Source: an uncultured Poribacteria bacterium (GTDB lineage: Bacteria > Poribacteria > WGA-4E > WGA-3G). Taken from it: a stretch of DNA of 64,000 bases. The stretch is from contig OX638352.1 in the NCBI GenBank assembly GCA_951813545.1, positions 4,867,966 through 4,931,965 of the forward strand, written 5' to 3'. Below the pieces are notes generated by a model. It searched no databases and was not told where the DNA came from. It saw only the letters and a list, made by a program, of their open reading frames with translations. Below are positions 9,072 through 58,046 of the stretch, in pieces (the stretch's first letter is position 1; each line of letters opens with the position of its first letter). Both the position numbers and the translations under genes were made by a program.

Positions 9072-9220
9072 GGCGAGGATACAATCCTCGCCAGCAGTGA
9101 TGGAGGTTTTTACTTCTAAGGTTTCTGCTTAAAGAGGCGAGGATACAATCCTCGCCAGCAGTGATGGAGGTTTTTACTTCTAAGGTTTCTGCTTAAAGAG
9201 GCGAGGATACAATCCTCGCC
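9072..9220. repeat. Tandem repeat, 64-bp unit in about 2.9 copies, each carrying a family-1 REP hairpin (GGCGAGGATACAATCCTCGCC)
   Basis: The unit aaagaggcgaggatacaatcctcgccagcagtgatggaggtttttacttctaaggtttctgctt is repeated at 9067, 9131 and 9195. Confidence 0.85.
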
Positions 9221-9383
9221 AGCAGTGATGGAGGTTTTTACTTCTAAGGTTTTCCGCCCCTACGGGGAAACCTGGATTTTTTGTCCACGCGCTGCTATAA
9301 ACATGCTGAAGAAACACCCAACCAAATAAACCTTACAGGACTGAAGAAAGGGCTTAGGGTATACACGGTTTTTACCTAAGATC

Positions 9384-9420
9384 CGGTGCGGTTGCAAACC
9401 GCACCTACCGGACCTGGGAC
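9384..9420. repeat. Family-2 REP hairpin (CCGGTGCGGTTGCAAACCGCACCTACCGG)
   Basis: Near-identical copies at 29624-29660, 32698-32730 (variant) and 54683-54710. Confidence 0.75.
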
Positions 9421-9469
9421 CGAAGCTGTTCCTTTTCTAAAATTGACACTTATGGTGCAGTTTCCTAAC

Positions 9470-10944
9470 CGCACCATAGGTGTCAATTTAGGGATTTTCG
9501 GTAGCCTCTTTGAGTTTCCAAAAGGTTGTGTTTTTTCCAGTGCTTCTCTGGAAAGTGCCTCCATTTTCAAATGAACACCTTATGGTTTTCAAGGTTTCAC
9601 GAAGTGCTGTTTTTGAGCGATGAAAACTCAAGGTGAGGAGTCTGGCATAACCTGCGATATGCTTCGCTGTTTTGATGAAACTCTGTTGTATGTGTCGGTA
9701 TCCCGCGACTAACATGACGGCATGTTGGATCAGAAGGGCAATAAGTTTCGCATAGATTTCAGATAGCATACGATACGGTTTTTGACTTCGAGAAACATGA
9801 AGTTTTCCGATACTTTTGAAACACTTATACATCAGTTCAACCTGCCAACGGATACCGACAATGGCACAGACCTGTTTCGGTGTGAGTTGATGTTCTTCGG
9901 TATTGGTGATATAGAGGTTGTATCCAGCGAGCCGTAAGAGTGCTTTTGACGGTGTTTGGGCTTTACGTTTGGCACGGTATCGGATGGAGCGTCGGCGTTT
10001 ATTCGTTTCTGCTTCAGAAAGTTTCTCGGCGATGAGGTAAACACGGAGTTGCTTTCTTTTGCCGATCCGTAGCGTCTTACGGATGTAGGTGTTTTCTACT
10101 TCTGCTTTGAGCATCTTTCCTAAATCAATGCGTTCACCGTTTTCATCAGCGAGGTAAGAGTTGGCTTTCAAACGCGAAATCCAGTAGACGTCGTTTTCAG
10201 TGAGTTTTTCAAGTTCATCGAGCGAAAAATATGCTAAGTCTGCGAGTCGTAAACTCCGTTGTGGCAGTGGATCGGCTGCTTTTGCGGCGGTGCTGTCAGC
10301 CGTCATGCCATTAGTCAGTTGGAAGTCGTGAAACCTCCCCGTAAGGATATCAAAGCAGAGATGAAGTTTCAAAGCGGCTTTCTGCCGATGATTCTTTTTC
10401 GGTTGGCCCTTCCACGTCTCGTGGAGTTCATCGGGGAGTGTGATCCACGTGCTATCTTGAATGTAGACACCACTAAACTGCTGAAGTAAAGGCAGGGCTT
10501 CTCGCCGACCGGCAACTTCAAGCATTTCTGTAATCGCAGCGTCAAGTGTGAGTTTCAACATTTTAGCAGTTTCAGGGGTCAGACGTTGTTCAAGTGCTTG
10601 TCGGCTGACTTGTATGCCGAGCGTCGCAGCGGTTTCAGTAAGTTGCTGATAACTCGCCTCTGGGTTTTCCAACCAACCGAGGACGAGGATTTGCGCCAGC
10701 GCACTCCCGGTAAGTTTTCGCTTTCTCTTGACGAACCCTGTAGTGACAGCGACTTCATCTGCAACGGTTTCAAGGATCGTTTGCATTTTATCTGGCACTT
10801 GTTGTAAAATGGACATTGGAGATACCTCTTTTTTGTAGAAATAACCACTACTTTCTTTTCTACATTATACAAGAGGTATTTCCGATTTACACCTTTTTTC
10901 TTACAAGAAAAACATACTTATTTTCCCTAAATTGACACCTATGG
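9470..10944 (-). mobile_element. IS4-superfamily insertion sequence (~1.47 kb) with 23-bp terminal inverted repeats
   Basis: Left TIR gcaccataggtgtcaatttaggg (9470-9492) is the exact reverse complement of right TIR ccctaaattgacacctatggtgc (10922-10944). The element is flanked by a 12-bp direct repeat agtttcctaacc (9458-9469 and 10945-10956), consistent with a TSD. Confidence 0.7.
9488..10816 (-). CDS. DDE transposase, IS4 family
   Basis: 442 aa with a C-terminal R-(3)-E-(6)-K signature (GIRWQVELMYKCFK) typical of IS4-group transposases, lying between the TIRs. Confidence 0.7.
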   Translation of the reverse strand: MSILQQVPDKMQTILETVADEVAVTTGFVKRKRKLTGSALAQILVLGWLENPEASYQQLTETAATLGIQVSRQALEQRLTPETAKMLKLTLDAAITEMLEVAGRREALPLLQQFSGVYIQDSTWITLPDELHETWKGQPKKNHRQKAALKLHLCFDILTGRFHDFQLTNGMTADSTAAKAADPLPQRSLRLADLAYFSLDELEKLTENDVYWISRLKANSYLADENGERIDLGKMLKAEVENTYIRKTLRIGKRKQLRVYLIAEKLSEAETNKRRRSIRYRAKRKAQTPSKALLRLAGYNLYITNTEEHQLTPKQVCAIVGIRWQVELMYKCFKSIGKLHVSRSQKPYRMLSEIYAKLIALLIQHAVMLVAGYRHIQQSFIKTAKHIAGYARLLTLSFHRSKTALRETLKTIRCSFENGGTFQRSTGKNTTFWKLKEATENP

Positions 10945-11017
10945 TGCAGTTTCCTAACCGCACCTACCACGTCGGAATAGACATAATTCGCTGATTTTGC
11001 GTAAGTCCTGAATTGTA

Positions 11018-12702: not shown

Positions 12703-12723
12703 GGCGAGGATTGTATCCTCGCC
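12703..12723. repeat. Family-1 REP hairpin (GGCGAGGATTGTATCCTCGCC)
   Basis: A member of the dispersed GGCGAGG-N4-8-CCTCGCC family. Other copies: 9072, 9136, 9200, 20907, 23628, 27782, 44866, 49135-49629, 54588 and 57910. Confidence 0.8.
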
Positions 12724-13985: not shown

Positions 13986-14099
13986 TTTTCAAAATCTCCT
14001 TAGGGTGTTGTATATTTTAGGTTTCCTATTGGATGGCACAGACTAACAGTCTATGCTACAACCGCACAACCTAACAGGTTATGCTACAGGTTAATGACA

Positions 14100-17000
14100 T
14101 TAGTCGGCTTCATCAATTATGAAACGTAGCACGCCGTGCCCAGGTGTCCCAACATAAAGTGTGTTGCCATCAACAGTAAGAGAACTAATCTCGCTCGGAA
14201 CTTCCGGTGTGACCTGTTTTGCTATGCTTGAATTCTCTTTCAATTGATATATCTGTTGCTCAGTTGCACCGTATACCGTTGTGCCGTCCACTGCCATTTT
14301 TTCTATGACAAGCGGTGTGCCTTCCGCATCGGTTGCCGTGTACCAGCGGATCCCATCGCTTGAATACGTAACACCTTTATCGGTTGCCACGTAAAGCGTT
14401 GGTCCGGCGAAGGCGATAGCCTTGAATTGGGTGACAGAAAACGGGAGGTCTGTCGTGACATCGTTCCAAGTGTCTCCTTCATCAAACGACTGAAGGAGGT
14501 GTCCATCCCGTTTGCCAACGTAAACAGTTTTACCTGAAACTGCGATTTTGAAATCAAGGGAACCCTGATCTTCAATGCCAGCGAAAGAATGAATAGACTC
14601 CCCTTCATCTGCTAAGCCAGTATTGAACCATTCAGTCATACCGGGCTTCCACCTGAAGAGTTGCTGGTTATACTCCATATAGTAAGTACTACCGCTGACA
14701 GCGAAACTCCCGAAATATGCCTGAATCATTTTAACGAGACCTTCCTCTATAGTCTCATTAGCAACTGTGCTAAGTAGATCCATATCGAAATCTTCAGGTT
14801 TTAATCCCGGACTTTCCTCAATGTTTTCCTGAAGTTCATCTTGTACGGGTTCCGGAAGGGCGTTTTTGAATGTTTCAACGATCAGTTTTTCAAGGTCTAT
14901 CCCCTCTACACTTGGCATTTCAGGGACAGGTACTAACCCGTCATCCTCAGCAGATACGCGGAAAAGTTGCGGCAATGTCCCGTTGACACCTTTGACATAG
15001 AGAATATCGTTAAATTCCATCATACCCGTGAGAGTTTCAGGACAATGTAAAACAGGTGTCCACGATTCACCATCATCAAACGAGACCACAAGTTTTCCCC
15101 ATGTTTTTGCGTAGAGCGTATTATTGGCATAGACCAACTTGTCTACACCCGTCCTCACCAATCCAGTGTTAAACGGATGCCACGTTTTGCCTGCATCGGT
15201 CGTGCGCTGAATCCCTAATGGGCTACTACTTTTGTAAAAGGTGTTCACATCCGCTATGACAGCGGTGGGAGTGCCTCCTATAGCTGCCGCTACGACACGG
15301 GTGGAAGGACCTGCTATAGTTGCGGCACCTGGACCTAAAGATATCCATGTTTCCCCGGCATCACTTGAGTAATAACTCTCATCGCCATATACGACTAAAA
15401 GTCTTTCTTGCGCTGCCACCATTTTGACGCTGGCAGTCTTTTCCGTTTCTGAGTTGTCATCCACTTTTGGGTTGTCAGTTCCAACGGTAAAAATAAATCC
15501 ATCGCTTTCCACGGAAACTGTTTTTGGGAAATCTATCGCTTGCCACGAATCTCCGAGGTCTGTTGAACGGTAAAGCGACGGAGAGGTATTAAATACCGAC
15601 ATTGACACGGAGGTCGCAAGTTTCTTATTTTCAATCTCCTCTCCGACGGCAACATAGAGTCGGTGTTCAGCACTTGCCAATGCGAGAATATTCTCGGTTT
15701 CACCTACGGGTAATTGCTCCCAGCCTTCCGAACTGTGGCGATAAAGCCCTTTATCCGTTCCAACAAAGAGAGTATCTGCAATAGCGGCGATTGCCTGAAT
15801 TTTCCTATCGGTTAGGTTTTCGTCGGTAAGAGATGTCCACGATTTACCGGCATCCACAGAGCGGAATACGCCATCAACAAGCCCCAAGTACATTGTAATG
15901 TTGGCTTGCGCCCCAAGGGCATCATCCGTTATGATAGTGCCAATTAATTGCCCTTCTGGACGTGTTCCCAATGAATTCCATGTTCTCCCTCTATCTGCGG
16001 AAGCAAGTACTTCGGTATCGGAAAAGATATAGAGGGTATCCTCATGTTCTGTTATTTGCCACGATTCATTAATAGACATGTTCGTATTAGCGGGTATCCA
16101 TGTGCTTCTATCGTCCGTTAATCTATAGAGGTCCGCGCCAGCTCTGGCATAAACGTCGCCGTTAGATGCCATGAAGAGGTTATTGACTACTCCCCCTTCG
16201 GGGCCCTTCGCTTGTGTCCATTGGGTCTTCGGTGTTGAGACTTCTGCCGTATCGACTGGCAGTGTGGCAAAAAGCGATTCGTCGGATCTCTGACCTGCGC
16301 CTGGACTTTTGCCAGGGATAGCCGAGCTTCCTGCCTGACTCCGAACTGCTGGCTTTGCTGGAGAGTCCACAACAAAAACCGCATCAATAAGCTCAACCGT
16401 CGGTTCCGAGGTGGCACTCAGATTGTAGGGTTTTTGAAAGCGGGAGAGATACTGCGTGCCAACACCCATCATTAAGAAAATCAAGATAGCGGAGGCAGCA
16501 GAGATTGCTAAGGGTGCGACCGGTTTACTCACAGCAGGTGGAACGGGTGCTATACGTGAAACTTCCTGCATAATGTTATCCGCTAAGTTATCAGGGAGTT
16601 GGAAGCTGCCGAGGTTCTGCTGAATTACGTCTTCCTCTTTCCGCAAACGGTTGCGTGCGCGGCTGAGGCGGCTTTTGACGGTATTCTGGGAGACACCGAG
16701 GAACTCACTGATGGCTTTGATTGTCATTTCACCGAGGTAATGGAGCGTCATCACCGTCCGTTCGCTTTCCGGTAATTTCTTGAGCAGCTCCTTGACGACC
16801 TCGCGGCGCGTTTCGTCGGCTTCGGCTTCCTGTTTTTCTGCTACATATTGAGAATATGACACTTTGTCCACCTCGTTTGAATCGGCAGTATCAAGGGATT
16901 CCATGGGTATGCGGTTTTTTCGGAGCCAATCAAGGCACTCGCGGGCTACGATAACGTAAAGCCATCCGCTAAACGCGTTAGGGTCCTTCAATGTCCGTAG

Positions 17001-17177
17001 TTGCCGGTACGCCTTGAGAAACGCGTCCTGCGTAAGTTCTTGGGCGATGTGAAAATCACCGATTTTCCGCCACGCCAGCGCGTGAACCCCTTTTTGATAT
17101 TTCTTGACTAAGGGACTGAACGCTTCCTGGTTCCCTTGCAATACCTGCTGAATGAGTTGCGCATCGCTCTGTTGCAT
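14100..17177 (-). CDS. ECF sigma / TM / Asp-box beta-propeller fusion, paralog C
   Basis: Same architecture as paralog A: region 2 LAWRKIGDFHIAQELTQDAFLKAY, region 4 HTH, a TM segment, and Asp-box repeats such as SADRGRTW, SVDAGKSW, STDLGDSW, TTDAGKTW, FDDGESW and FDEGDTW. Confidence 0.75.
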   Translation of the reverse strand: MQQSDAQLIQQVLQGNQEAFSPLVKKYQKGVHALAWRKIGDFHIAQELTQDAFLKAYRQLRTLKDPNAFSGWLYVIVARECLDWLRKNRIPMESLDTADSNEVDKVSYSQYVAEKQEAEADETRREVVKELLKKLPESERTVMTLHYLGEMTIKAISEFLGVSQNTVKSRLSRARNRLRKEEDVIQQNLGSFQLPDNLADNIMQEVSRIAPVPPAVSKPVAPLAISAASAILIFLMMGVGTQYLSRFQKPYNLSATSEPTVELIDAVFVVDSPAKPAVRSQAGSSAIPGKSPGAGQRSDESLFATLPVDTAEVSTPKTQWTQAKGPEGGVVNNLFMASNGDVYARAGADLYRLTDDRSTWIPANTNMSINESWQITEHEDTLYIFSDTEVLASADRGRTWNSLGTRPEGQLIGTIITDDALGAQANITMYLGLVDGVFRSVDAGKSWTSLTDENLTDRKIQAIAAIADTLFVGTDKGLYRHSSEGWEQLPVGETENILALASAEHRLYVAVGEEIENKKLATSVSMSVFNTSPSLYRSTDLGDSWQAIDFPKTVSVESDGFIFTVGTDNPKVDDNSETEKTASVKMVAAQERLLVVYGDESYYSSDAGETWISLGPGAATIAGPSTRVVAAAIGGTPTAVIADVNTFYKSSSPLGIQRTTDAGKTWHPFNTGLVRTGVDKLVYANNTLYAKTWGKLVVSFDDGESWTPVLHCPETLTGMMEFNDILYVKGVNGTLPQLFRVSAEDDGLVPVPEMPSVEGIDLEKLIVETFKNALPEPVQDELQENIEESPGLKPEDFDMDLLSTVANETIEEGLVKMIQAYFGSFAVSGSTYYMEYNQQLFRWKPGMTEWFNTGLADEGESIHSFAGIEDQGSLDFKIAVSGKTVYVGKRDGHLLQSFDEGDTWNDVTTDLPFSVTQFKAIAFAGPTLYVATDKGVTYSSDGIRWYTATDAEGTPLVIEKMAVDGTTVYGATEQQIYQLKENSSIAKQVTPEVPSEISSLTVDGNTLYVGTPGHGVLRFIIDEAD

Positions 17178-17216
17178 TGCACGCCTCCTCTCAAATTATT
17201 ACGTCTGTTGGTTTAA

Positions 17217-17252
17217 GTGACGTAACTTAGATTTCAAAAGGTTGCATTATTT
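17217..17252 (-). promoter_or_regulatory. Conserved ECF-type promoter motif, copy C
   Basis: Minus strand reads AATAATGCAACC-ttttgaaatctaagtta-CGTCAC, 40 nt upstream of the paralog C start. Confidence 0.45.
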
Positions 17253-17513: not shown

Positions 17514-17591
17514 GGTTTTCTCCTTTAAAGTGAAAGTTCGGTTCCGTTTGTGATCAACAACTTGTCTGAAATTTAACATCCATTGATTGTA

Positions 17592-17627
17592 GTGACGTAA
17601 CTTAGATTTCAAAAGGTTGCATTATTT
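17592..17627 (-). promoter_or_regulatory. Conserved ECF-type promoter motif, copy D
   Basis: Identical core (gtgacgtaacttagatttcaaaaggttgcattatttt) to copy C. Confidence 0.4.
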
Positions 17628-17694
17628 TCAAAAAGGTGGAGAATCAACCGCTCGTGTAAACATTTTTCCGTAATCGTCACATTCATTGATTAGA

Positions 17695-17730
17695 GTGACG
17701 TAACTTAGATTTTAAAAGGTTGCATTATTT
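17695..17730 (-). promoter_or_regulatory. Conserved ECF-type promoter motif, copy E
   Basis: Tandem second copy about 100 bp upstream of copy D. Confidence 0.35.
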
Positions 17731-17741: not shown

Positions 17742-17875
17742 ATAGGACTTACGCAAAATTCCATCATTTGCTTGCGGAATTGGAAGGAGAGGAAGATTGG
17801 AAGATTGAAGGAAGTCTCCATTCTTCCTCTCCTTCCATTCTTTCCTCCATCAATATCTACGTTGTGCGTAAGTCC
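17742..17875. mobile_element. MITE (~134 bp) bounded by the IS701-like TIR (ataggacttacgca ... tgcgtaagtcc)
   Basis: Inverted 13-14 bp termini match the TIR of the IS at 59994-61085. The interior is a GGAAG/CTTCC-rich palindromic low-complexity sequence. Confidence 0.45.
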
Positions 17876-17962
17876 GGAGGGAAATTAAGAGTTGTATGGA
17901 ACCCACCTATGGTTACTAAAGTTTGGACAATTTTAAGATGGGCATAGATTTCTGATGGGACA

Positions 17963-18135
17963 CCCTCTTTTGTAGCATAGGCTGTTAGCCTGTGTCCATG
18001 TATTCCTGTAGCATAGGCTGTTAGCCTGTGTCCGTGTATTCCTGTAGCATTGGAAGGTGTGAAACTCACCGAAAAATCCCTTGATAGATATAGCACGCCG
18101 CTACGATGCCCAGGCTAACAGCCTATGCTACAGAA
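17963..18135. repeat. Family-4 REP cluster: two tandem 37-bp units and an inverted copy (core CTGTAGCATAGGCTGTTAGCCTGTG)
   Basis: Related copies at 14037-14095 and 55318-55345. Confidence 0.7.
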
Positions 18136-18385: not shown

Positions 18386-19648
18386 ATGCATTTAACATTT
18401 AGATACCGTGTGTATCCGACGCAAACGCAGGCAACCACATTATTAGCGTGGTTTGACCACTTGTGTGAACTCCAGAACGCTGCGCGCAACAATCGCAAGT
18501 TCGCCCATGAGACAGAAGGTCGTTTCGTCACGCACAATGAGCAAGAGAAACTTTTGAAGGTTGCGCGTGAGAAGTATGACGATTTCCGTGAAGTGCCTCA
18601 AGACTTTCAAGTTTCTATCCTCAAACGCGTTGAGAAAGCCTTTGATGCGTTCCGTAGGCGTTGTAAGGAAGGTGCGGCGAAAAAAGGGTATCCTCGCTAC
18701 AAAAGGCGTGTCCGTTCTCTAACGTGGTGCTTGCGAAAGCACAAACGCAAAACAGGTGAACGTATCCGCCAAAATCCGATAATAGCAACCGATTTTAGGC
18801 ACAATCGCTTAAAAGTGCCAAAGTTAGGCGAAGTCAAAATCTACATGCACCGACCCTTACAAGGTGACCCGAAAGAAGTCACGATCGTCAAGAAAGCCAG
18901 CGGTTGGTATGCTCATATCTCTTCTGAGATACCGGATATGCCGAAAGTTGAACCGACAGATGCTATCGCAGTTGATGTCGGCGCGACCCACTACCTGACC
19001 ACCTCTGAAGGTGAAAAAGAAGACAATCCGCGTTGGTATCGTCAAGCAGAAGGTTTGCTCCGAAAACACTCTAAAGACCTTTCTCGAAAGAAAAAAGGTA
19101 GCAACCGTAGAAAGAAACAACAACACAAACTCGCTTTACACCATGAACGGACGACAAACAAACGCAAAGACTTTATCGGTAAACTCGTTTACAAACTCTA
19201 CCACCATCAGAAAAACAATGTATTAGTGGCAGAAGATTTACGCGTATCTAACATGGTAAAGAACCAACACCTCAGCAAGAGCATTTCCGATGCGTCTTGG
19301 GCAACCTTCTTTAAGTGGTGTGCTGACATAGCCGAAAGAGACGGTCTGCATTTCCACCAAGTTGACCCCAAGAACACTTCGCAAACTTGCTCCGCTTGTG
19401 GTGAGAAATCGCAAAAGAAACTCTCTTTGGCGATTCGCACCTTTGAGTGTCAGTTTTGTGGCACTTCGTTAGACAGAGACCACAACGCTGCTATAAACAT
19501 ACTTCTTAGGGCAGCTGCGGCCCTTCGTGGAGAGCGGTGGGTTTCCACCCTCTATGAAGCGAGAAACAAGAACGAAGCACAAGACGAAGGCTTGCTGAAC
19601 GCAACACAACTTTTGTTGTTTGACGCCATCACAAGCCCAAGTCTTTAG
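18386..19648 (+). CDS. tnpB: TnpB (IS605/IS1341-family OrfB) RNA-guided nuclease-like protein
   Basis: The N-terminus FRYRVYPTQTQATTLLAWFDHLCELQNAARN is typical of TnpB. It has a RuvC-like core and a C-terminal zinc finger CSACGEK...CQFCG. No tnpA is adjacent. Confidence 0.85.
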   Translation: MHLTFRYRVYPTQTQATTLLAWFDHLCELQNAARNNRKFAHETEGRFVTHNEQEKLLKVAREKYDDFREVPQDFQVSILKRVEKAFDAFRRRCKEGAAKKGYPRYKRRVRSLTWCLRKHKRKTGERIRQNPIIATDFRHNRLKVPKLGEVKIYMHRPLQGDPKEVTIVKKASGWYAHISSEIPDMPKVEPTDAIAVDVGATHYLTTSEGEKEDNPRWYRQAEGLLRKHSKDLSRKKKGSNRRKKQQHKLALHHERTTNKRKDFIGKLVYKLYHHQKNNVLVAEDLRVSNMVKNQHLSKSISDASWATFFKWCADIAERDGLHFHQVDPKNTSQTCSACGEKSQKKLSLAIRTFECQFCGTSLDRDHNAAINILLRAAAALRGERWVSTLYEARNKNEAQDEGLLNATQLLLFDAITSPSL

Positions 19649-19714: not shown

Positions 19715-20755
19715 TTAGTTCTTTGAAACCTTGATGGCTCCCCACGTCACAGCCATCTTATCTAAAGGTTCCACCGGCAGCGAATCACCAACCCACCGAG
19801 GCGAAGTCGGCACACTATCCGACAAAACCACTAAACGCCGAACTTGCTGCGACCCAAGCGAATAGATGTAGAGACCATTATTACCAAAACCTATATCCGC
19901 AGAAAAGACAAGATATTTGCCATTCGGCGACCAATCTACTTGAAAGAACTCCCGCAAACCACGATTGGCTATTTCCAAGTGGTTTATCCCATCAGCATTC
20001 ACAATAAATATGCCTTCATGAAGGTGAGTGACCACGGGGCGAGGGTGCCTCCCATCAACATCGGCAACAAATACACCTTCATGAACAGGGGTGTAGGCTA
20101 TCTTCTTACCGTCCGGGGAGAACGCATAGAACGGGTAACGGTCTAAGAAACCCGCACGTTCAGGGAATGGCGAGTGTTTCTTCGGTTTCTCCTGTCCATT
20201 GACATTCGACTCCCAGATCTCCTGATGCCTGTCCGTTGAAGTGAGATTGTAGAACACGGATTGCGCATCTGGTGCCCAGACGAAACCTATTGGATTCTTA
20301 CCAATGGGGTGGAGTAACTTTCGCTTCCGTCGTCCATCCGGCGAAATTAGAAAGATTTCTGTGTTCACATCGCGTCCACCTCTTATCCTTTGCGGACTGC
20401 CAGCATACACAATCCAACGTCCATCTGGAGACCAAGAAATATCGACATAAGAATGGACTTGCAAGATGATGGACCGAATTCTCTTACCGGTGCGAAGGTC
20501 TCGGATATGGAGAACATTACGGCGGTCCGGGTCGCCATCGACCGCTGCCAAAAAGCGACCATCCGGCGAAGGCGTAGAAATACCTTCATCCGCAATGCGC
20601 GTAGGTGTAGGGACGGTATCATTGGGACGTATCATGTAGGTCGTGCTACGATAGGAGTAGACAATCATACCTTCTGCCCAACAGAGCAGATTCGGGCAAA
20701 CACCCGATAGAAGCATTATTACCGAAAACAGAAAAGTCAAGCGATACGTGTTCAT
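19715..20755 (-). CDS. Secreted PD40/TolB-like beta-propeller repeat protein
   Basis: Has a signal peptide (MNTYRLTFLFSVIMLLSGV) and repeated SPDG/WSPDG motifs such as FSPDGKKIAY and WSPDGRWIVY. Confidence 0.6.
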   Translation of the reverse strand: MNTYRLTFLFSVIMLLSGVCPNLLCWAEGMIVYSYRSTTYMIRPNDTVPTPTRIADEGISTPSPDGRFLAAVDGDPDRRNVLHIRDLRTGKRIRSIILQVHSYVDISWSPDGRWIVYAGSPQRIRGGRDVNTEIFLISPDGRRKRKLLHPIGKNPIGFVWAPDAQSVFYNLTSTDRHQEIWESNVNGQEKPKKHSPFPERAGFLDRYPFYAFSPDGKKIAYTPVHEGVFVADVDGRHPRPVVTHLHEGIFIVNADGINHLEIANRGLREFFQVDWSPNGKYLVFSADIGFGNNGLYIYSLGSQQVRRLVVLSDSVPTSPRWVGDSLPVEPLDKMAVTWGAIKVSKN

Positions 20756-21308: not shown

Positions 21309-21389
21309 GATTTATTCCTTTAAAACGAGTGGAAGTTTCGTTTGGTTTACAAGAGGTAACTTAGTGAAATTTAACATCCGTTGATTATA

Positions 21390-44843: not shown

Positions 44844-44933
44844 CGGAGACAATTCCTTGATAAGAGGCGAGGTTGGAAACCTCGCCAGCGAATACACGAG
44901 ATTAAGCGTGGCATCGCGATCATGAGATAACGC

Positions 44934-48857: not shown

Positions 48858-48917
48858 AGATTTTTTCTCCGTAGGGGCGTGGTCCCCACATCCGATTTTG
48901 TTTCGTTTAAATGTTCC

Positions 48918-49544
48918 TTACCATCTCGAAGGGTTGTCAGGATGCAATTGATCTAATTCCCATTTCATCGGATTATCCTGAATATATTGGCGAAGTCGTT
49001 GTAAATCTGGTTCGTCTCGGATGATATGATCGTGATAATTTCTTTGCCAAACACGCGTTCTGGGTGTATTGTAGTGTTGGTTAATATGCTTGGTGGATTG
49101 ATATTTGAAATAGGCTATGATTTTGCCTAACGAGGGCGAGGGGACCTCGCCCCTACGATTATTTTCTGGTTCGTCTGACGCAGGCGAGGGGACCTCGCCC
49201 CTACGAGTGTTGGGATCTTCTGGTGGGCGTGGGGACCTCGCCCCTACGAGTGGTTGTGGATCCCTCGTCTCTGCGATGCCCCATGAAATAATTCCGTGAA
49301 AATGATTAGGCATGATGACAGAATCGCCCAATTCAACGGAGGGAAAATGTTGTGGAATATGTTTCCAACATTCAACGACAATTTGGCCTATTGCATTCAA
49401 TCGCATTTTCCCATCTGTTATTGTCCCCAATAAACATTTTCGGTGTTGTACACAGATGGTCACGAAATATGCACCGGGTTGGCTGTAATCATAATTACGC
49501 AAACGCATGGCGCGGCGTTGAGGAAGATTGGATTTGGAGTTCAT
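48918..49544 (-). CDS. REP-associated tyrosine transposase (RAYT, IS200/Y1 HUH superfamily) carrying in-frame REP insertions
   Basis: The N-terminus RLRNYDYSQPGAYFVTICVQ, the HuH motif NHFHGII, and the C-terminal WQRNYHDHIIRDEPDLQRLRQYIQDNPMKWE (catalytic Tyr) are RAYT hallmarks. Three copies of the hairpin GGCGAGGGGACCTCGCCCCTACG, at 49135-49153, 49183-49201 and 49228-49245, lie in-frame between the HuH and Tyr motifs and encode RRGEVPSP-type segments. Confidence 0.75.
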   Translation of the reverse strand: MNSKSNLPQRRAMRLRNYDYSQPGAYFVTICVQHRKCLLGTITDGKMRLNAIGQIVVECWKHIPQHFPSVELGDSVIMPNHFHGIISWGIAETRDPQPLVGARSPRPPEDPNTRRGEVPSPASDEPENNRRGEVPSPSLGKIIAYFKYQSTKHINQHYNTPRTRVWQRNYHDHIIRDEPDLQRLRQYIQDNPMKWELDQLHPDNPSRW

Positions 49545-49562
49545 AAGGAAACCCCCTCAGCG

Positions 49563-49624
49563 GGCGAGGAAACCTCGCCCCTACGATATTTTACGGTTGA
49601 ATTGGACGAGGGGACCTCGCCCCT
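49563..49624. repeat. Two family-1 REP hairpins immediately upstream of the RAYT gene
   Basis: ggcgaggaaacctcgcccctacg (49563-49585) and gacgaggggacctcgcccctacg (49607-49629). Confidence 0.8.
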
Positions 49625-49632
49625 ACGATGTG

Positions 49633-51412: not shown

Positions 51413-52816
51413 TTATGATGCATCATCTGCATCTGATGTATTCTCTTCTTCGTATTCTACATAACCGTGTTCTTGTAACCAACTGTGGAGTTGTTCGTAA
51501 ATCCGAAATAGCAGTAGGTCGCGTGTCTCTCGCCACGGCGTAAGGTTGAGGTTATCGCTCGCGGGGAAAAGATATTCCATGTAATCATCAATTGAAAATA
51601 AGGGTTCCGGTGCACCTTGTTGAATCCTTTCACGGATGACATAGCGTAAAATATTTCTACATTCACCGTAACTTTTTGCCCGCTCTAATTGCTTAAGCCG
51701 CTTATCATCTTTAGATTCCTGGATGCACTCAGAAATTAGATTTCCGACCTGCTTAATTTTTTCAACTCGTGTTTGCTCCATAGTTCTAACCTCCTGTAGA
51801 TAGAGGGAAAATAGTTCCCAGTTGCTGCGTGTTTTCCGCGCGAGTTTATCAATGAAAAATCCACGTATTGATTTATCCTCTAACAGATTATTATAGACTA
51901 AATTTGTCGATTTTTGATAAATCTCGGTTGGGTTTGTCTTATCCGAATCAATATTTTGAAACCCTTTTTTTGTTTGTCTCCTATAACCACTTCTGACAAT
52001 TAGATACCAGTTTTTGGCATACTGTGCCCGATGTGCATAGCGCAGAAAATTAAAGACCCTTGCTGGCAAGTGATACAGGTCTAATTCAGCTTTCCTATTA
52101 TCATTGGAAAAACTGTAAACCTGCATCGTAATATTCCCATCTGATCGTGCTTTTTCATACTCGATCATTTTCCTTACCATATAGAAAAGAGCATTTTGAG
52201 CTTTTGATTCCTTTGGATCAAAAAATCCCGTAAATTCGTTTCGGGACCCGCGACTAATAACATCTTCAATACAAGTTCTCGTCCAGTAACTTATGGCTTT
52301 CCAAGAATTTGAGTGTAAAGCTAAAAACTTTCCTCCACTACGAACAAATCCTAACGGTGCCAATTGGATAGCAAGCGCACATGCAGCACAATAACCAACG
52401 CCCTCTGCGAATAAAGGGAAGAAATTTCGTAGACTTCCAGAACCCGTGAGTGGAACTTCTGTCTTCTTAAGATGAAAATCCGCACTTCGCCTACCACATC
52501 CCATGCAATCGCCAGTATCACCCAGATCGGTAACTTTACAAAGTTGATGGAACCATTCTGATTTAAGTTCTTCATTAAGGCTCTGTATGCCTTTTTGGAT
52601 TTTGCTATGCTGGGTTAAGGTGCTGTTTGGAAAAATAAATCGGATTTGAGTGCGGTATTCGGACTCACAATAAAGCGGTACAACCTGCTGAACGACTTCT
52701 TGTAAATCTTCGACTGTAATTTCATTTGGCTGCGGGTGCCCCCCTAGCCATTCACAAATCGCACATACTCCGGCATCAACAAATGGATTGCCCATTAGTT
52801 TCTCATATATTGGCAT
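51413..52816 (-). CDS. cas8b: Putative Cas8b-like large subunit (divergent)
   Basis: 467 aa, in the large-subunit position between cas6 and cas7. It has a Cys-rich segment (CMGCGRR...CAACALA). Similarity is weak; assignment is by position. Confidence 0.45.
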   Translation of the reverse strand: MPIYEKLMGNPFVDAGVCAICEWLGGHPQPNEITVEDLQEVVQQVVPLYCESEYRTQIRFIFPNSTLTQHSKIQKGIQSLNEELKSEWFHQLCKVTDLGDTGDCMGCGRRSADFHLKKTEVPLTGSGSLRNFFPLFAEGVGYCAACALAIQLAPLGFVRSGGKFLALHSNSWKAISYWTRTCIEDVISRGSRNEFTGFFDPKESKAQNALFYMVRKMIEYEKARSDGNITMQVYSFSNDNRKAELDLYHLPARVFNFLRYAHRAQYAKNWYLIVRSGYRRQTKKGFQNIDSDKTNPTEIYQKSTNLVYNNLLEDKSIRGFFIDKLARKTRSNWELFSLYLQEVRTMEQTRVEKIKQVGNLISECIQESKDDKRLKQLERAKSYGECRNILRYVIRERIQQGAPEPLFSIDDYMEYLFPASDNLNLTPWRETRDLLLFRIYEQLHSWLQEHGYVEYEEENTSDADDAS

Positions 52817-52986: not shown

Positions 52987-53385
52987 TTAATTGAGCATTA
53001 CTTCCTTCCAAGCAGTTTTACCGAAGGGGACTGCGAATTCGGTTATTATCACATTCTCATCAAAGCCATGTTTTAATTCATCTTCAAGTTTCAATCCGAA
53101 TTGTGCGTCAGGCATTCGCCATTCAATCGATCGCGGGTGTAGATCATTATAGATCTCTACAACATGGATTGGATGTTTCTTTCTTAAATATGCCGTGTAT
53201 ACAAAAGCTTGCGTTTGATGATCTATGAACAAGTACGGTATTAGATATGCCACTCCAAGTTTGGTGAGGTAGTTGGGAACCTCGTTAGTTCTATTTGCGA
53301 CAGTACAAACAAAACCGAAAAGATTGCATTGATTCCATGCAGCAATATATTCTTTGGAAGCCTTCATAATTTCCTCCAAGTCCAT
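52987..53385 (-). CDS. Hypothetical 132-aa protein, possibly NTF2/SnoaL-like fold, inserted in the cas operon
   Basis: The N-terminus MKASKEYIAAWNQCNLFGF resembles SnoaL/NTF2-like starts. It is embedded in an AT-rich segment between cas6 and cas8. Confidence 0.35.
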   Translation of the reverse strand: MDLEEIMKASKEYIAAWNQCNLFGFVCTVANRTNEVPNYLTKLGVAYLIPYLFIDHQTQAFVYTAYLRKKHPIHVVEIYNDLHPRSIEWRMPDAQFGLKLEDELKHGFDENVIITEFAVPFGKTAWKEVMLN

Positions 53386-53590
53386 TCAGTAAAAATTCGG
53401 TCTGCATCCCATAGCAGGTTACTATATAACACTCTAATCTTAATTATACGCGAAACAACTTTATTTGTCAAATATAATTCCATTTTTTTTTAATTTAGTA
53501 TAACTTAACATAACAAAGGATTTTTTAATTATACGCGAAACAACTTTATTTGTCAAATTTCTTGATTAATTCAAAGGGTACTCCAATTCC

Positions 53591-53674
53591 AAATTGGTTC
53601 GATTAAAGATAAACAAAAAAGCGCGTTAGTATCACATAACAAAACAAGTTTCTATTCCATACTGGTTCGATTAG
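53591..53674 (-). CRISPR. Orphan mini-array: one truncated and one near-complete copy of the CRISPR repeat with a 39-nt spacer
   Basis: aaattggttcgattaaag (53591-53608) and gtttctattccatactggttcgattag (53648-53674) match the array repeat. They lie in AT-rich, leader-like sequence downstream of cas6. Confidence 0.6.
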
Positions 53675-53787
53675 ATTATTGATTTCACGTTATATTAGAC
53701 GTTTCACATTTAAAATGGTTTACAGAAACTTTTAAAATATGTGTGTGTGGTCCTCAGCCATACATAAACCCACCCTCATAGTAGGTC

Positions 53788-54540
53788 TTAGACTTCTGCC
53801 ATCCCGAAACCGGCACTGTTTTTGTCGCCGAAACCACACTCGTAGCCGGTTTGGATTAATGCGGGACTTCCAGAGACACGGAATGGACACATCATTCCCT
53901 TTATCTTGATTCCTTTGTAGTCCACCAGACGAGTGACGCGTCCCTGTCGTCTGTCAATGTAGTCTTTATCAAAGGCGAAGGTCAGGGTATCGTCGTGGGG
54001 GACGCGAGCGTGGATTGCTTCGTGTTTGCGGATTAGGTTTTGGCGGATGAGTTCGGAGAGTACTGGATCGTCGGGTAGGCAGTAGTGCATTGCTTGCTTG
54101 CCGTCTCGCTCGCGCTTAGTGGACATTACAATCGGGGAGAGACATCGGAAATGCATTTCTGATTGGAAACGGGGGATACGCGGTATTGTGACATCCGTAA
54201 TTGGCAACCGACGCTGCCCAATGGATAACCGTCCCTCGGTTAAGAGTGTATTGGCGAAATGGGAGAGAAAGCGTTCTACTGGCGAGGAGACGTACCATGT
54301 TAAAGTTGAACGGAAATGGATTTTGTCACCGGTGATGCGTCTGCGTTCTGCCATTAATTGGGAGAAGGTGAAGAGTTTGAAACGTTTCTCGGCAGCGCGG
54401 TAGCCTTCCTCATGTAGAAAAGAGGCATACTCAGGGTCGGATTCGGCGAGGAAACGATAGATGACACCGGCGAGCAGGTGGTTGTAGTTAATGGGTAGGG
54501 TGAGTCCGTTCCCGACATCGGCAACGATTTTGATGCGCAT
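53788..54540 (-). CDS. cas6: Cas6 endoribonuclease
   Basis: 250 aa with a C-terminal glycine-rich loop GFGDKNSAGFGMAEV typical of Cas6. Confidence 0.75.
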   Translation of the reverse strand: MRIKIVADVGNGLTLPINYNHLLAGVIYRFLAESDPEYASFLHEEGYRAAEKRFKLFTFSQLMAERRRITGDKIHFRSTLTWYVSSPVERFLSHFANTLLTEGRLSIGQRRLPITDVTIPRIPRFQSEMHFRCLSPIVMSTKRERDGKQAMHYCLPDDPVLSELIRQNLIRKHEAIHARVPHDDTLTFAFDKDYIDRRQGRVTRLVDYKGIKIKGMMCPFRVSGSPALIQTGYECGFGDKNSAGFGMAEV

Positions 54541-54587: not shown

Positions 54588-54715
54588 GGCGAGGTTAGAA
54601 ACCTCGCCAGCAGGGCGGTGGATGTATCCTCTCATTTTTCAGGCGAGCTTTGGGTTTCACTACGTTCAACCCAACCTACGATGCCATCCGATGCGGTTGG
54701 GAAACCGCACCTACC
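54588..54715. repeat. BIME-like cluster of three different REP-family hairpins upstream of cas6
   Basis: Family 1 ggcgaggttagaaacctcgcc (54588-54608); family 5 ttgggtttcactacgttcaacccaacctacgatgcc (about 54643-54680); family 2 gatgcggttgggaaaccgcacctacc (about 54683-54710). Confidence 0.6.
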
Positions 54716-55243: not shown

Positions 55244-55432
55244 TTTTATTATTCCTTTTAATAGTTGTCAGTTAAAGAGGGGTTTGACCTAATCAGAGAC
55301 CTCAATCATTCGTTTGCACAGCCTAACAGGCTATGCTACAGTTCCTTTTAAAGTTGTCAGTTGTCAGTTATCAGTTGTCAGTTAAAGAGGGGTTTGATCT
55401 AATCAGAGATCTCAATCATTCAGGAGGACAAT

Positions 55433-57193
55433 CTACGTGGCGTGAGCGTCTTGGTGGTTTTCAATATCGTTGATAACACCGTCCACGCGGGTGATTAGAT
55501 TATTCCGTTCGTCTGAACTGAGTGGTACAGGTGCGAAACGGTGGTAATCACACTTCGTGAGGAGATCGACAAGTTCCTCAATAATAGGTTCGGAGACCTG
55601 TGCGTGAGTACACATTTCGCGTGCCGTGTCAATATTGCGTTCTGAGAGTGCGAAAGTATCTTCAAGGTACTGGTAAAGCGTTTGCGCGAGTGCATTGGCG
55701 AAGGTCGTTCCGGTGTCTGTCGTGTCGCTACGTGCGAGTGCCGCGAGGGCATCGTGCGCCTGTGAAACCGGTGTTACCTGCTCTCCTTCGGCAGGCTGCG
55801 TTTTTTGGTTTCTTGGTCCACTACTGTCAGGCGCGCGTGTTCCCGCGGAGTTGTTTATCCGTGCCTTTGTAGGCATCACAAATCCGGTGCGATACCAGAG
55901 ATACCCACCGACCGCCAATATAACGAGTAGAACTGCGAATAGGATTAACCAGCGAATCCATGGTGAACCGTCCGTATCGTCAAGAGTATCGTTCGGGTTC
56001 GGACGCACGGAGATCGGGATAGGGGTTGTCTCCGTCGTCGCATATACCGCACGGCTTGGATCGAAGTAGCCATACTTAATCGCTGGGATCCGCAAGGCAC
56101 CTGTTCGAGCAGGGGTCAGGACGTACGCGTAACCCCGATTTGTTAACGTAGAATCTGCCACGAGATTGGGTCCGCTCACCATGACCCCGGCGATTGTTGG
56201 CAGTTTGGGTGGTGTGACCGTCTGGATGTTGCCGTGTCCAGAGATACGGACAGTGAACGTTAGCGGGTGTCCAACTTCAATCCAACCACGCTCAATTTCA
56301 GCAGAAATTTGATATTCACCGATAGCACCGTTGAAGTGAGGAGGTCTGCCTGTTTCGGGAATCGGTTGCACCGTCAGTGTCAAAGGTTTGGTTTTTAAGG
56401 TTTTGCGTCCTTGCGGGAGTGGTAGTAGAAGTTCAGCAGGTGCGAGAACGATCTGTCCGGCTTTCTTCGGATATAACTTATGTGTGTATTCCTCGACCCA
56501 AAATGTTCGCCCACGAATTTGCTGTGTGTATGTCGGCACCTTTTGAAGTGTCTCAACGAAGAAATCACGGAATGTCGGGAGGCGCGGAGTTGGGGATTCA
56601 CGAGTTGGAAGAACTGTGGTGTAGAGGTGTCGGAAGGTATACGTAAAGGGTGCATTCAGGTAGGGCTGTGACGTGTTGACCTCTGCTTCAACTTGGTGGA
56701 TAGCGTTGGTTGAAACATCTATGTATGTGTCAGCACCGCTCACCCGGATCGAACCCGGATTTGCAAAATAGGCGTTACCTTGGTAGGCAAAACGGATGTC
56801 GGACAGGGCAAAATCCCCCACTGCTTGCGGAATCAATTCATAAACCCATGCCATGGAAACAGCAATCTTGTCTGATTCCAATCGCGGTGTAGTTTCTGAA
56901 TGCAGTGGCACTGCGAGGAACGCAGGTAGGAAGTTGAACTGCGGTGCCTCAATATGTTTGATGAAGGTTTTTCCCGAAATCGTGAGGTCCAACCTTGCCT
57001 TCTCCCCGAATTGGATGTGGCGAGGACTTATGATGGCAGCGACATTAATCTCTTGGCTTTGTGCCTGTGTTGTAAGAAGGATGAAAACGATGCCGACGAA
57101 AAAGATTGGAAGACTCTTGGTTGGAAGAGTGGAAGAGTGGAAGAGTGGGTACCCATCCTTCCATCCCCTTCTTCCCTTCTTCCATCCTTCCAT
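55433..57193 (-). CDS. batD: BatD-like protein (aerotolerance operon family)
   Basis: A signal/TM N-terminus, a large extracytoplasmic domain, a C-terminal TM (WIRWLILFAVLLVILAVGGYLWY) and a cytoplasmic tail, as in BatD. Start placed at M47 of the ORF. Confidence 0.5.
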   Translation of the reverse strand: MEGWKKGRRGWKDGYPLFHSSTLPTKSLPIFFVGIVFILLTTQAQSQEINVAAIISPRHIQFGEKARLDLTISGKTFIKHIEAPQFNFLPAFLAVPLHSETTPRLESDKIAVSMAWVYELIPQAVGDFALSDIRFAYQGNAYFANPGSIRVSGADTYIDVSTNAIHQVEAEVNTSQPYLNAPFTYTFRHLYTTVLPTRESPTPRLPTFRDFFVETLQKVPTYTQQIRGRTFWVEEYTHKLYPKKAGQIVLAPAELLLPLPQGRKTLKTKPLTLTVQPIPETGRPPHFNGAIGEYQISAEIERGWIEVGHPLTFTVRISGHGNIQTVTPPKLPTIAGVMVSGPNLVADSTLTNRGYAYVLTPARTGALRIPAIKYGYFDPSRAVYATTETTPIPISVRPNPNDTLDDTDGSPWIRWLILFAVLLVILAVGGYLWYRTGFVMPTKARINNSAGTRAPDSSGPRNQKTQPAEGEQVTPVSQAHDALAALARSDTTDTGTTFANALAQTLYQYLEDTFALSERNIDTAREMCTHAQVSEPIIEELVDLLTKCDYHRFAPVPLSSDERNNLITRVDGVINDIENHQDAHAT

Positions 57194-57212
57194 CTTTCCA
57201 TCCTTCTGAAGT

Positions 57213-57845
57213 TTACCAATCCCTTGCCCGTCGATATCCACTTTTTCGCTGTTCCTGTAGTAATTTTTGCCGTAACCTATTTTCATTCTCACTAAAACGT
57301 TCCAAGAGTTGAAGTGCTTCGGCTTTGCCAATGTCGTTGGGTTCTGTTTTCGGTGGAGCGTCCTTGTTCGCCTGCTGTTGCTGTGCGAGATCTTGCTGCT
57401 GTTTCATCAGTTGAAGTGCTAATGCGAGGTTGTGTTGGGCATCGACATCTTGAGGGTCTAAGCGGAGTGCGTGTTTGTAAGACTCAATTGCACCGGCAAG
57501 ATCGCCTGCTTTAAATTGGGCGTTTCCCAAGTTGTAATAGATATAAGCCTGATGTGGAACGTTCTTGGTTTGCCCGGTGTGCTTTAGCAGCGACACCTGA
57601 AATGCTCGCGCAGCCTCTCTAAATTTCCCCTGTCTGTATAGGACAGTGCCGAAGTTATAGTGTGCGGTCGGACTTTCAGGTTTGTCAAGCGTTGCTTGTT
57701 GAAAGGCAACCCGTGCTTCGTCATAGTTCTGACGTGCGTACGCCTCGTTCCCAGCTTTCATAGTCCGCGTCCAACCCCCCACCCATCCGACGAGCACAAA
57801 GACGAAAATAGGTATGAATGAGCAACGGAGTATTCTGTTCCACAT
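57213..57845 (-). CDS. TPR-repeat protein (BatC/BatE-like)
   Basis: An N-terminal TM followed by TPR repeats (AHYNFGTVLYRQGKFREAARAF, IYYNLGNAQFKAGDLAGAIESYKHALRLDP). Confidence 0.6.
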   Translation of the reverse strand: MWNRILRCSFIPIFVFVLVGWVGGWTRTMKAGNEAYARQNYDEARVAFQQATLDKPESPTAHYNFGTVLYRQGKFREAARAFQVSLLKHTGQTKNVPHQAYIYYNLGNAQFKAGDLAGAIESYKHALRLDPQDVDAQHNLALALQLMKQQQDLAQQQQANKDAPPKTEPNDIGKAEALQLLERFSENENRLRQKLLQEQRKSGYRRARDW

Positions 57846-58046
57846 ATCTTTATTATATCAGATGCTTTTGTGGTTTGCAAACAATTATGGCAGGCGATTT
57901 ATGTGGAAGGGCGAGGATACAATCCTCGCCAGCGAAAACGGAAGGGTGATGCAAAAAGTATGGCGAATTGCTGTACACGGTGGTACGACAATTCGCCATG
58001 GCGAGGTGTCCTTAGAACAAACGCCTATAAAAATAATAAAGTGTTA

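Follow-up and report, generated by a model that had tools for sequence, protein, structure and literature searches.

Probable GTAG-tagged REPs and an associated subclass 2.4 RAYT in an uncultured Poribacteria bacterium

This study concerns a 64,000-nucleotide stretch of contig OX638352.1 from an uncultured Poribacteria bacterium (the window), in which an original prediction had recognized at least five dispersed families of hairpins resembling repetitive extragenic palindromic (REP) elements. The data presented here suggest, with a probability of about 0.8, that these repeats are GTAG-tagged REPs of a known superfamily which have spread with a REP-associated tyrosine transposase (RAYT) of subclass 2.4, with Poribacteria as the host. 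All five families fall within the published GTAG-REP superfamily as branches of it, and the feature that unites them, a GTAG head shared on the opposite strand, had gone unnoticed. The evidence comes from the common design of the repeats, from a RAYT gene that is flanked by and contains REPs of one family, and from related loci in other genomes, where the stems change in a compensated manner. The window has a GC content of 45.7%, and several contigs with related loci are of sponge metagenome origin.

Design and distribution of the repeats

When the repeats are read on the opposite strand, families 1a, 2, 4 and 5 and one copy of family 1b have 5'-GTAG followed directly by a hairpin. Families 1a, 1b, 2 and 4 have stems of 8-9 bp and loops of 3-4 nt, and family 5 has an 8-bp stem with a loop of 11-12 nt; the repeats are thus short GC-rich stem-loops like those of canonical REPs (PMC3733652, PMC6006769). 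A GT[AG]G foot is present in 1a, 2, 4, 5 and the 1b copy at 27782, and is replaced by GCTG in most 1b copies. Family 1a has the form tcGTAG-GGGCGAGG-tcc-CCTCGCCC, with an 8-bp stem, a 3-nt loop and the GTAG head, and its six copies (48871-49626) are found only around and inside the RAYT gene. In family 1b the stem is 9 bp long (GGCGAGG[AT]T), the loop again has 3 nt, and most copies carry GCTG in place of GTAG. Family 2 is cgGTA-GGTGCGGTT-tgc-AACCGCACC-gg, family 4 is GTA-GCATAGGCT-gtt-AGCCTGTGC and family 5 is GTAG-GTTGGGTT-N11-12-AACCCAAC.

The catalogue holds 39 short hairpin repeats at 20 sites. All five predicted motifs were present, and shuffled controls gave an expectation of 0-0.01 matches for each of them. 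The repeats were said to lie mostly between genes, often at gene ends, and 36 of the 39 are indeed intergenic, compared to an intergenic share of 15.3% of the non-CRISPR part of the window (binomial p = 2.5e-26, a value to be read with the clustered copies not being independent). Identical copies also occur at unlinked positions: the same family 2 29-mer is found at 9383 and 29623, and the same 1b 21-mer at six positions. As single-stranded DNA, families 1a, 1b, 2 and 4 fold as predicted (z = -2.7 to -7), whereas the folds of family 5 (z = -1.1 to -2.6) and family 3 (z = -1.2 to -1.7) are weak. The repeats other than 1a, which are listed with the RAYT gene below, are the following.

9065-9252, minus strand: family 1b tandem array, 64-bp unit x2.9, 100% identical, z = -7.0
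9072, 9136 and 9200, minus strand: 1b hairpin GGCGAGGAT-N3-ATCCTCGCC, one per 64-bp unit
12703-12723, strand undefined: 1b hairpin with no recognisable head
20903-20931, minus strand: 1b hairpin with GCTG on both strands and a 13-bp stem, z = -6.4
23628-23648, plus strand: 1b hairpin, 3' of the plus-strand gene 22525-23529
27782-27805, minus strand: 1b hairpin whose head is a true GTAG (GTAGGCGAGGTT-tct-AACCTCGTC)
44866-44886, minus strand: 1b hairpin in the cas1/cas2 gap
54588-54608, minus strand: 1b hairpin in the copD-cas6 spacer
57910-57930, minus strand: 1b hairpin
9383-9411, minus strand: family 2 REP (cGGTAGGTGCGGTT-tgc-AACCGCACCgg) within a composite repeat of about 165 nt, z = -5.0
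9454-9475, strand undefined: family 2-type hairpin GGTGCAGTTTCCTAACCGCACC, adjoining one end of an IS4-family element
10943-10967, minus strand: family 2-type hairpin identical to the 9454 copy, with a GTAG head, adjoining the other end of that element
29623-29651, minus strand: family 2 REP, same 29-mer as at 9383
32699-32719, strand undefined: diverged family 2 copy within the second composite repeat of about 165 nt
54690-54714, minus strand: family 2 REP variant in the copD-cas6 spacer
9252-9267, minus strand: family 3 half-REP (CCCCGTAGGGGCGG)
23722-23737 and 23772-23787, minus strand: two family 3 half-REPs
24235-24250 and 24284-24299, minus strand: two family 3 half-REPs
14036-14087, minus strand: tandem pair of family 4 REPs with compensated stems GCATAGACT/AGTCTGTGC and GCATAACCT/AGGTTGTGC
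17972-18131, mixed strands: family 4 cluster with plus-strand copies at 17972 and 18008 (36-bp tandem), a partial copy and an inverted copy at 18109-18131; the GTAG heads face outward
55316-55339, minus strand: family 4 REP, stem variant GCATAGCCT/AGGCTGTGC
7288-7389 (plus strand) and 7418-7519 (minus strand): two long family 5 elements (about 100 nt) as an inverted pair, with an extra head at 7524-7539
24307-24401, minus strand: long family 5 element
25655-25686, minus strand: short family 5 REP (GTAGGTTGGGTT-N12-AACCCAAC)
54650-54679, minus strand: short family 5 REP in the copD-cas6 spacer
59065-59095, minus strand: short family 5 REP

Most of the original families survive in this catalogue, some of them in altered form. 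At least 16 copies had been claimed for family 1, and there are 12 exact matches to GGCGAGG-loop-CCTCGCC and 16 when 1-2 mismatches are allowed; the 64-bp tandem triplication was also recovered. The family as a whole shares its motif but is composed of two structurally different sub-types, 1a and 1b, of which only 1a is physically tied to the RAYT gene. For family 2, the proposed sites at 9383 and 29623 are exact, but those at 32699 and 54690 have diverged, and extra copies were found at 9454 and 10943. Family 4 was found at all the expected places (14037, 17970, 18006, 18109 and 55317) with an extra variant at 14065, and it has four compensated stem variants in the window and further ones in other genomes. 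Family 4 was also considered as the end of the adjacent TnpB element, but this reading was not supported, as neither its other copies nor the family-4-like hairpins of other genomes are beside TnpB. Family 5 occurs as predicted in short form at 25655, 54650 and 59065, but its other proposed sites belong to the long forms at 7288 (plus), 7418 (minus) and 24307 (minus), whose ends are the two hairpin arms.

Family 3 did not hold up as an independent hairpin family. Its five copies exist, but the coordinates given for them were off by 2-17 nt (the motif starts at 9253, 23723, 23773, 24236 and 24285), and its sequence is that of a half-REP, namely the first 14 nt (the 5' half, GTAGGGGCGG) of a 1a-type REP without the 3' arm. 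The GTA forms the loop of a 5-bp hairpin whose stability is not significant. Wherever this 14-mer appears in the other genomes fetched, it opens a complete REP as its 5' part; an exact match to the motif is present once in a metagenome contig of unestablished origin. Two pairs of these half-REPs enclose about 450 nt (23790-24235) with an ATG at 23934.

Two inverted doublets were detected, each in one copy: one of family 4 (18008 plus and 18109 minus, with a 78-nt spacer) and one of the long family 5 elements (7288 plus and 7418 minus). The repeats upstream of cas6 had been described as resembling a bacterial interspersed mosaic element (BIME). The copD-cas6 spacer does hold a cluster of REPs, but it is not a strict BIME, as it combines three families (1b, 5 and 2) with all heads on the minus strand and has no alternating inverted units.

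The RAYT gene and its cognate REP

The window contains one gene for a putative transposase of the RAYT (TnpA_REP) type, and no further RAYT was found in it by tblastn. The gene and the 1a REPs around and within it are as follows.

48918-49544, minus strand: RAYT (TnpA_REP) gene, 208 aa, assigned to subclass 2.4, between cas5 and cas3 on the same strand
49563-49584, minus strand: 1a REP, 5' flank of the RAYT gene, z = -3.9
49605-49626, minus strand: 1a REP, 5' flank of the RAYT gene, in the cas5-RAYT spacer
48871-48893, plus strand: degenerate 1a REP (GTAGGGGCGTGG-tcc-CCACATCC), 3' flank of the RAYT gene, inverted relative to the 5' copies
49135-49156, minus strand: 1a REP in the RAYT reading frame, encoding RRGEVPSP
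49183-49204, minus strand: 1a REP in the RAYT reading frame, encoding RRGEVPSP
49226-49247, minus strand: 1a REP in the RAYT reading frame, encoding VGARSPRP, with one stem mismatch

On sequence grounds, the open reading frame (ORF) at 48918-49544 is a REP-associated tyrosine (HUH/Y1) transposase of subclass 2.4. It matches the Pfam family Y1_Tnp (PF01797) with 25.1 bits against a cut-off of 23, and its motifs NHFH, WQ and YIQDNP agree with the subclass 2.4 signatures in Table 1 of PMC6006769. A profile search of PDB returned E. coli TnpA_REP (4ER8) as a weak top match (E = 0.0086), and a PDB search with the single sequence returned no match.

The original prediction had assigned this gene to family 1 as its cognate RAYT and had noted family 1 copies inside it, and both claims are borne out for 1a. 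The 88-nt spacer between cas5 and the RAYT gene holds two 1a REPs, and the 60-nt spacer between the RAYT gene and cas3 holds one inverted, degenerate copy. Three more 1a REPs lie in frame within the ORF, between the HuH and Tyr motifs. Thus the gene has both REPs within 1 kb on either side and REPs within its own coding sequence, as is the case for subclass 2.4. Among 15 aligned homologues (170-320 aa), differences in length consist almost only of the number of REP-encoded units; close homologues carry inserts of up to about 90 aa, and the homologue P0059 has an N-terminal extension. The inverted flanking copies, together with repeated in-frame insertion into a tolerant HuH-Tyr linker, show 1a to be, by sequence and position, the cognate REP of this RAYT.

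Related repeats in other genomes

A genome collection was scanned with the RAYT alignment and 80 loci were kept, the source species not being among them. A REP of the form GTAGGGGCG[AG]GG-N3-4-CC[TC]CGCC lies beside or inside the RAYT homologue in 20 of 21 other poribacterial loci. REPs of the GTAGGGGCG[AG]GG type also occur in loci of Cyanobacteria, Chloroflexi, Nitrospirota, Ignavibacteria, Calditrichia and Omnitrophota, often in the form of a double-foot palindrome, and most of 38 loci examined have in-gene copies. No poribacterial genome contributed more than one RAYT locus to the 80 that were kept, and the position of this locus is conserved, which suggests vertical inheritance.

These loci also allowed the stems to be compared. 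When REPs were anchored on their invariant ends only, all four free stem positions were complementary in 203 of 257, with ten arm variants (among them GAGG, GGGG, AGGG, GCGG, TGGG, GTGG and ACGG). Random re-pairing of the arms gave an expectation of 75 complementary stems and a maximum of 93 in 1000 trials. The compensatory stem changes that characterize GTAG REPs are therefore present, and many of the imperfect 1a-type stems are G·T cases.

Families 1a, 1b, 2 and 5 were all found outside the window, as were family-4-like hairpins. A lack of outside copies, which was to refute the original prediction, is thus not seen for 1a, 1b, 2 and 5. In the poribacterial loci, which carry many other families of GTAG hairpins, the hairpin GGGTTGGG occurs in 13 genomes, family 2 is present along with a GGTGCGATA variant, family 5 has similar 12-nt loops, and the family-4-like hairpins are GCACAATCT-gtt-AGATTGTGC and GCGCAAACT-gtt-AGTTTGCGC. 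A metagenome scan for 1b gave about 55 matches, on contigs with a GC content of 0.43-0.50 and in many contexts, with loops as in the window; some of these relatives have GTAG on one strand and GCTG on the other. REP content varies between orthologous spacers, as the copD-cas6 spacer is 16 nt long in locus L011 compared to 196 nt, with three REPs, in the window. Additionally, locus L024 (18600-20543) has a truncated second RAYT with the HuH half only (20286-20525, minus strand), whose in-gene REP is of a different family (GGGCAACC-cttgt-GGTTGCCC) and which is followed on its 3' side by family-4-like and other hairpins. Poribacteria therefore have other RAYT/REP pairs, as described by Di Nocera et al. 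2013 for genomes that contain more than one REP family.

Proposed mechanism and points against it

By analogy with the biochemistry and structure of E. coli TnpA_REP (PMC6006769), the RAYT would bind the folded hairpin in single-stranded DNA, with GTAG serving as a guide, and would cut and rejoin that strand. REPs would thereby be copied or moved to new, mostly intergenic, sites. Families 1b, 2, 4 and 5 may be sister REP families that are served by this RAYT through the shared head, or by paralogues elsewhere, and family 3 may be a half-REP that has decayed. Once inserted, the hairpins would be transcribed mostly in sense and may act as RNA or DNA structural elements, and hairpins of the family 2 type may in addition be insertion targets for an IS4-family element.

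Several observations weigh against the spread of these repeats with the RAYT. The NCBIfam model REP_Tyr_transpos matches the protein with E = 5e-17, but its 62.1 bits are below the 80-bit cut-off, because only the C-terminal half aligns, the domain being split by the REP-encoded insert; an AlphaFold model built on a 15-sequence alignment was unusable (pLDDT 34.6). Subclass 2.4 REPs typically have a stem whose foot is made of three G-C pairs; families 2, 4 and 5 do not, so their servicing by the RAYT of the window is a conjecture. No 1b copy was found near a RAYT in the 80 loci, and most 1b copies are without GTAG. No sign of recent transposition was seen in strains that are 97-99% identical over about 10 kb: no REP was present in one of them and absent from another, and they differ only by a 14-nt microsatellite and a variable 1.3-kb segment. 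Lastly, no copy of any family was found in the 10 kb past the right end of the window in a strain that is 97-98% identical, and metagenome loci selected for 1b have about one copy each. This suggests that genome-wide copy numbers may be only in the tens and that the window may be unusually dense.

Alternative explanations

One alternative is that the hairpins are host RNA elements (3'-end stabilisers, attenuators or processing sites) which are kept by selection, with the RAYT link being incidental. Such an origin is unlikely, though several features agree with it. Where neighbours are co-directional, the GTAG head lies on their sense strand in 21 of 24 cases. Family 4 copies in the window all keep a T·G pair that wobbles only on the GTAG strand, and the G·T mismatches of the 1a-type stems point the same way. 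Copies also lie between genes of one operon (cas1/cas2, cas5/RAYT, ABC2 genes), and RNA roles for GTAG REPs are proposed by Di Nocera et al. 2013 (PMC3733652). However, a run of T (at least 5 T in the next 8 nt) follows only 2 of 29 hairpins, which are thus not intrinsic terminators, and no Rfam family reached threshold in a scan of the whole window. The same strand bias would be expected if transposition of single-stranded DNA favours one replication strand and genes are co-oriented with it. An RNA role also leaves unexplained the in-frame copies in the RAYT gene and the species-variable REP content of orthologous spacers. It fits better as a secondary role of REPs that were spread with the RAYT than as an alternative origin for them.

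A second alternative takes families 2 and 5 out of the RAYT system, with family 2 as abutted ends of an IS4-family insertion sequence (IS) and the long family 5 elements as miniature inverted-repeat transposable elements (MITEs) with terminal inverted repeats (TIRs). The element on which the family 2 part depends is this one.

9476-10942, minus strand: IS4-family IS inserted at a family 2 hairpin, TIR ATAGGTGTCAATTTAGGGA, transposase at 9488-10816

This IS has the same 22-nt family 2 hairpin on either side (9454-10967), the family 2 copies at 9383 and 32699 lie within a composite repeat of about 165 nt (9300-9460 and 32620-32776, about 80% identical) that ends in an IS4-TIR-like sequence (AAATTGACA[CG]TTATGGTGC), and in the long family 5 elements (about 100 nt) the two hairpin arms do form the ends. 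However, the TIR of the IS begins only after the hairpin (ATAGGTGTCAA...), and the same IS end occurs without a hairpin in locus L089. A 55%-identical IS in locus L010 (2751-4250) has on both sides an identical 21-nt hairpin of another GTAG family, GGGGTTAGG, with GTA.../...TAC feet, which indicates that the hairpin is target DNA and not part of the IS. In contigs of other strains (the L087-L091 set), the IS4 copy abuts a resident family 2 hairpin upstream of cas6. In the window, no IS lies near the family 2 copies at 29623 and 54690. The hairpins of family 2 are therefore unlike MITEs or IS ends: the TIR lies outside them, they vary among IS homologues and they are absent in one context. Family 2 as abutted IS ends was rejected after this comparison of IS contexts, and both families bear the GTAG head as RAYT-linked REPs do. 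As a whole this alternative is very improbable. Instead, the IS4-family element appears, as far as these sequences indicate, to choose REP hairpins as its target and to duplicate the stem-loop in full.

An origin of the repeats as chance palindromes or local duplications, without family structure, is refuted by the shuffled controls and by the motifs recurring at 20 unlinked sites, as well as in other genomes and in metagenomes, even if some of the singleton 7-bp hairpins of the window (72 compared to 28-42 in shuffles) are at chance level.

RAYT genes inside cas operons

The right half of the window is a type I-B CRISPR-Cas locus on the minus strand, in which cas8b1 is followed in order by cas7, cas5, the Y1_Tnp ORF 48918-49544, cas3, cas4, cas1 and cas2. 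Its remaining parts are as follows.

53788-54540, minus strand: cas6
51413-52816, minus strand: cas8b1 (TIGR01908)
about 35067-44330: CRISPR array of about 140 repeats

The placement of the RAYT gene is recurrent. With cas5 and cas3 both visible, the RAYT lies co-oriented between them in type I-B operons of the window and of nine other loci at species level (L009-L012, L014-L016, L022 and L044); in L007, L008 and L013, cas5 is upstream and the contig ends just past the RAYT. Identity of the RAYT across these poribacterial cas5-RAYT loci goes down to 58%. L017 has lost the array together with all cas genes and retains its RAYT between the same outer neighbours. In cyanobacteria, the RAYTs of a separate clade are placed between cas3' and cas10d in type I-D operons (L031, L034, L036, L038, L043 and L046, with partial cases in L035 and L049), and these operons have REP hairpins in the spacers between cas genes. 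A literature search found no report of a RAYT inside cas operons.

It is conceivable, though quite improbable, that subclass 2.4 RAYTs and their REPs are a stable and possibly functional part of type I CRISPR-Cas operons and not a random passenger. The HUH single-strand nuclease or the hairpins could have a role in the expression of the cas operon, or in Cas3-linked DNA processing or adaptation, or cas operons could be a preferred safe harbour for the RAYT element. Unless the placement beside cas3 is coincidental, it ties CRISPR-Cas to a domesticated nuclease of single-strand DNA, a connection open to direct testing in genetically tractable cyanobacteria.

The cas operon also contains an insert of about 850 nt that is absent from strain contig L094. 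It includes a degenerate CRISPR repeat-spacer-repeat unit (53578-53677, minus strand) between cas6 and cas8b in the orientation of a CRISPR RNA, then two promoter-like copies of TTGACAAATAAAGTTGTTTCGCGTATAAT (within 53425-53680) and a 132-aa ORF without a family match (52987-53385). The degenerate mini-array presumably resembles the CreTA/CreR-type mini-arrays of type I-B systems.

Other features of the window

The left half of the window holds a TnpB gene and three paralogous fusion genes of the extracytoplasmic function (ECF) sigma type.

18386-19648: TnpB gene
32-3163, 3370-6488 and 14100-17177: ECF-sigma/BNR-Sortilin fusion genes

The middle paralogue consists of two overlapping ORFs (3370-6066 and 6063-6488), and the split is probably a frameshift or a pseudogene. 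A conserved box of 50-68 nt on the minus strand, AAATAATGCAACC-N17-CGTCAC, lies directly upstream of the three fusion genes and at three other sites (3188-3237, 6517-6566, 17203-17252, 17578-17627, 17681-17730 and 21376-21425). By its sequence, this box looks like an ECF-type promoter (AAC ... CGTC). Look-ups by exact protein sequence gave no record for the gene at the left edge of the window or for the TnpB.

The window also has a small repeat that is not of the GTAG type (17742-17885 and 32300-32460, with a solo end near 10995). An 11-bp inverted repeat, GGACTTACGCA / TGCGTAAGTCC, delimits its MITE-like segments, which measure about 130-160 nt. The motif ACTAAAGTTTGGACAATTTT occurs near REP clusters at 17915, 23690 and 23885 (inverted), and the HIP1 motif GCGATCGC has 0 occurrences across the 64 kb. 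A cyanobacterial origin was rejected on this ground and because the homologues bear the name Candidatus Poribacteria. Between the MutL-domain gene and the next gene there is a strain-variable segment (59993-61274), which is 1.28 kb in the window, 1.55 kb of unrelated sequence in L093 (12686-14240) and 0.34 kb in L094 (3654-3998). Strains also differ by two units in a heptamer repeat, AGTTGTC (55352-55383).

Comparison with known systems

The closest described system is TnpA_REP subclass 2.4 (Quentin et al. 2018, PMC6006769), which is the same as RAYT group 4 of Bertels et al. 2017 (PMC5581495). Its proteins have the motifs NH[IFV]H, WQ and YIxNNP and a mean length of 194 aa, and its REPs have a GTAG foot with three G-C pairs at the stem foot and include 'double-foot' REPs (PMC6006769). 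In-frame REPs within the transposase gene itself are described as unique to this subclass (PMC6006769), and REP copy numbers for group 4 RAYTs are reported in the tens (PMC5581495 grouping). The system of the window shares the HuH, WQ and Tyr motifs, the GTAG foot, the three foot G-C pairs (in 1a) and the in-gene REPs, as well as a patchy spread over many phyla with an abundance in Cyanobacteria and probably modest copy numbers. It differs in that Poribacteria are not in either survey (PMC6006769, PMC5581495), that the gene of the window is embedded in a type I-B cas operon, and that the number of in-gene REP units varies widely among its close homologues.

The wider superfamily of GTAG REPs was described, with 24 families, by Di Nocera, De Gregorio and Rocco 2013 (PMC3733652). 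Its members are 20-40 nt long stem-loops that end in GTAG; their stems measure 6-13 bp and most loops have 2-4 nt, although some families (GTAG-15) have large ones. Single genomes, from a variety of phyla, hold several families, every family with a RAYT of its own. There are sub-families with compensatory stem changes and G·T pairs, degenerate tags (GYAG, GYRG, GTRG, GTMG), and a location mostly between co-directional or convergent genes with some copies inside ORFs. The repeats of the window match this account in stem, loop, tag, number of families and location. However, the GCTG tag of 1b in the window is not among the degenerate tags listed in that source.

The REPs and BIMEs of E. coli and the REP doublets forming hairpins (REPINs) of Pseudomonas, with their RAYTs of groups 2 and 3, are similar in having GTAG with an imperfect palindrome and a RAYT flanked by its REPs, and the inverted doublets of family 4 (18008/18109) and long family 5 (7288/7418) recall REPINs. 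However, these RAYTs belong to other subclasses, many elements of the window are singlets or tandem copies and not inverted doublets, the REPs upstream of cas6 come from three families that share one orientation, which sets them apart from a BIME, and copy numbers of the window type are probably in the tens and not the hundreds. The palindromic elements of Rickettsia are likewise tolerated in frame inside protein genes, but they are CGTC-tagged, have no transposase and occur in many genes, whereas the in-gene copies of the window are only in the RAYT. ISs that target REPs (IS1397/ISKpn1 and the Pseudomonas ISPpu/ISPa elements) were reportedly described by Tobes and Pareja in 2006 and are said to occur repeatedly at REP hairpins. 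The IS of the window would differ from them in belonging to the IS4 family and in having the whole 21-22 nt stem-loop on both sides, compared to a reported loop duplication of 3-4 bp.

A literature search for REPs in Poribacteria found no paper. This study extends the described GTAG REP and TnpA_REP subclass 2.4 system to sponge-associated Poribacteria and otherwise changes little, though the 64 kb are a compact example in which several REP families, in-gene REPs and a REP-targeting IS occur together. For annotation, it is of use that these hairpins should not be confused with terminators, small RNAs or CRISPR debris, and that length variation of the 'transposase' is REP-encoded. The interest rests mainly on the recurrent placement of the RAYT beside cas3 in type I-B and I-D operons. 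Compared with these known systems, the one found here is already described in kind, its host phylum is new, and its unusual point is a RAYT inside a CRISPR-Cas operon.

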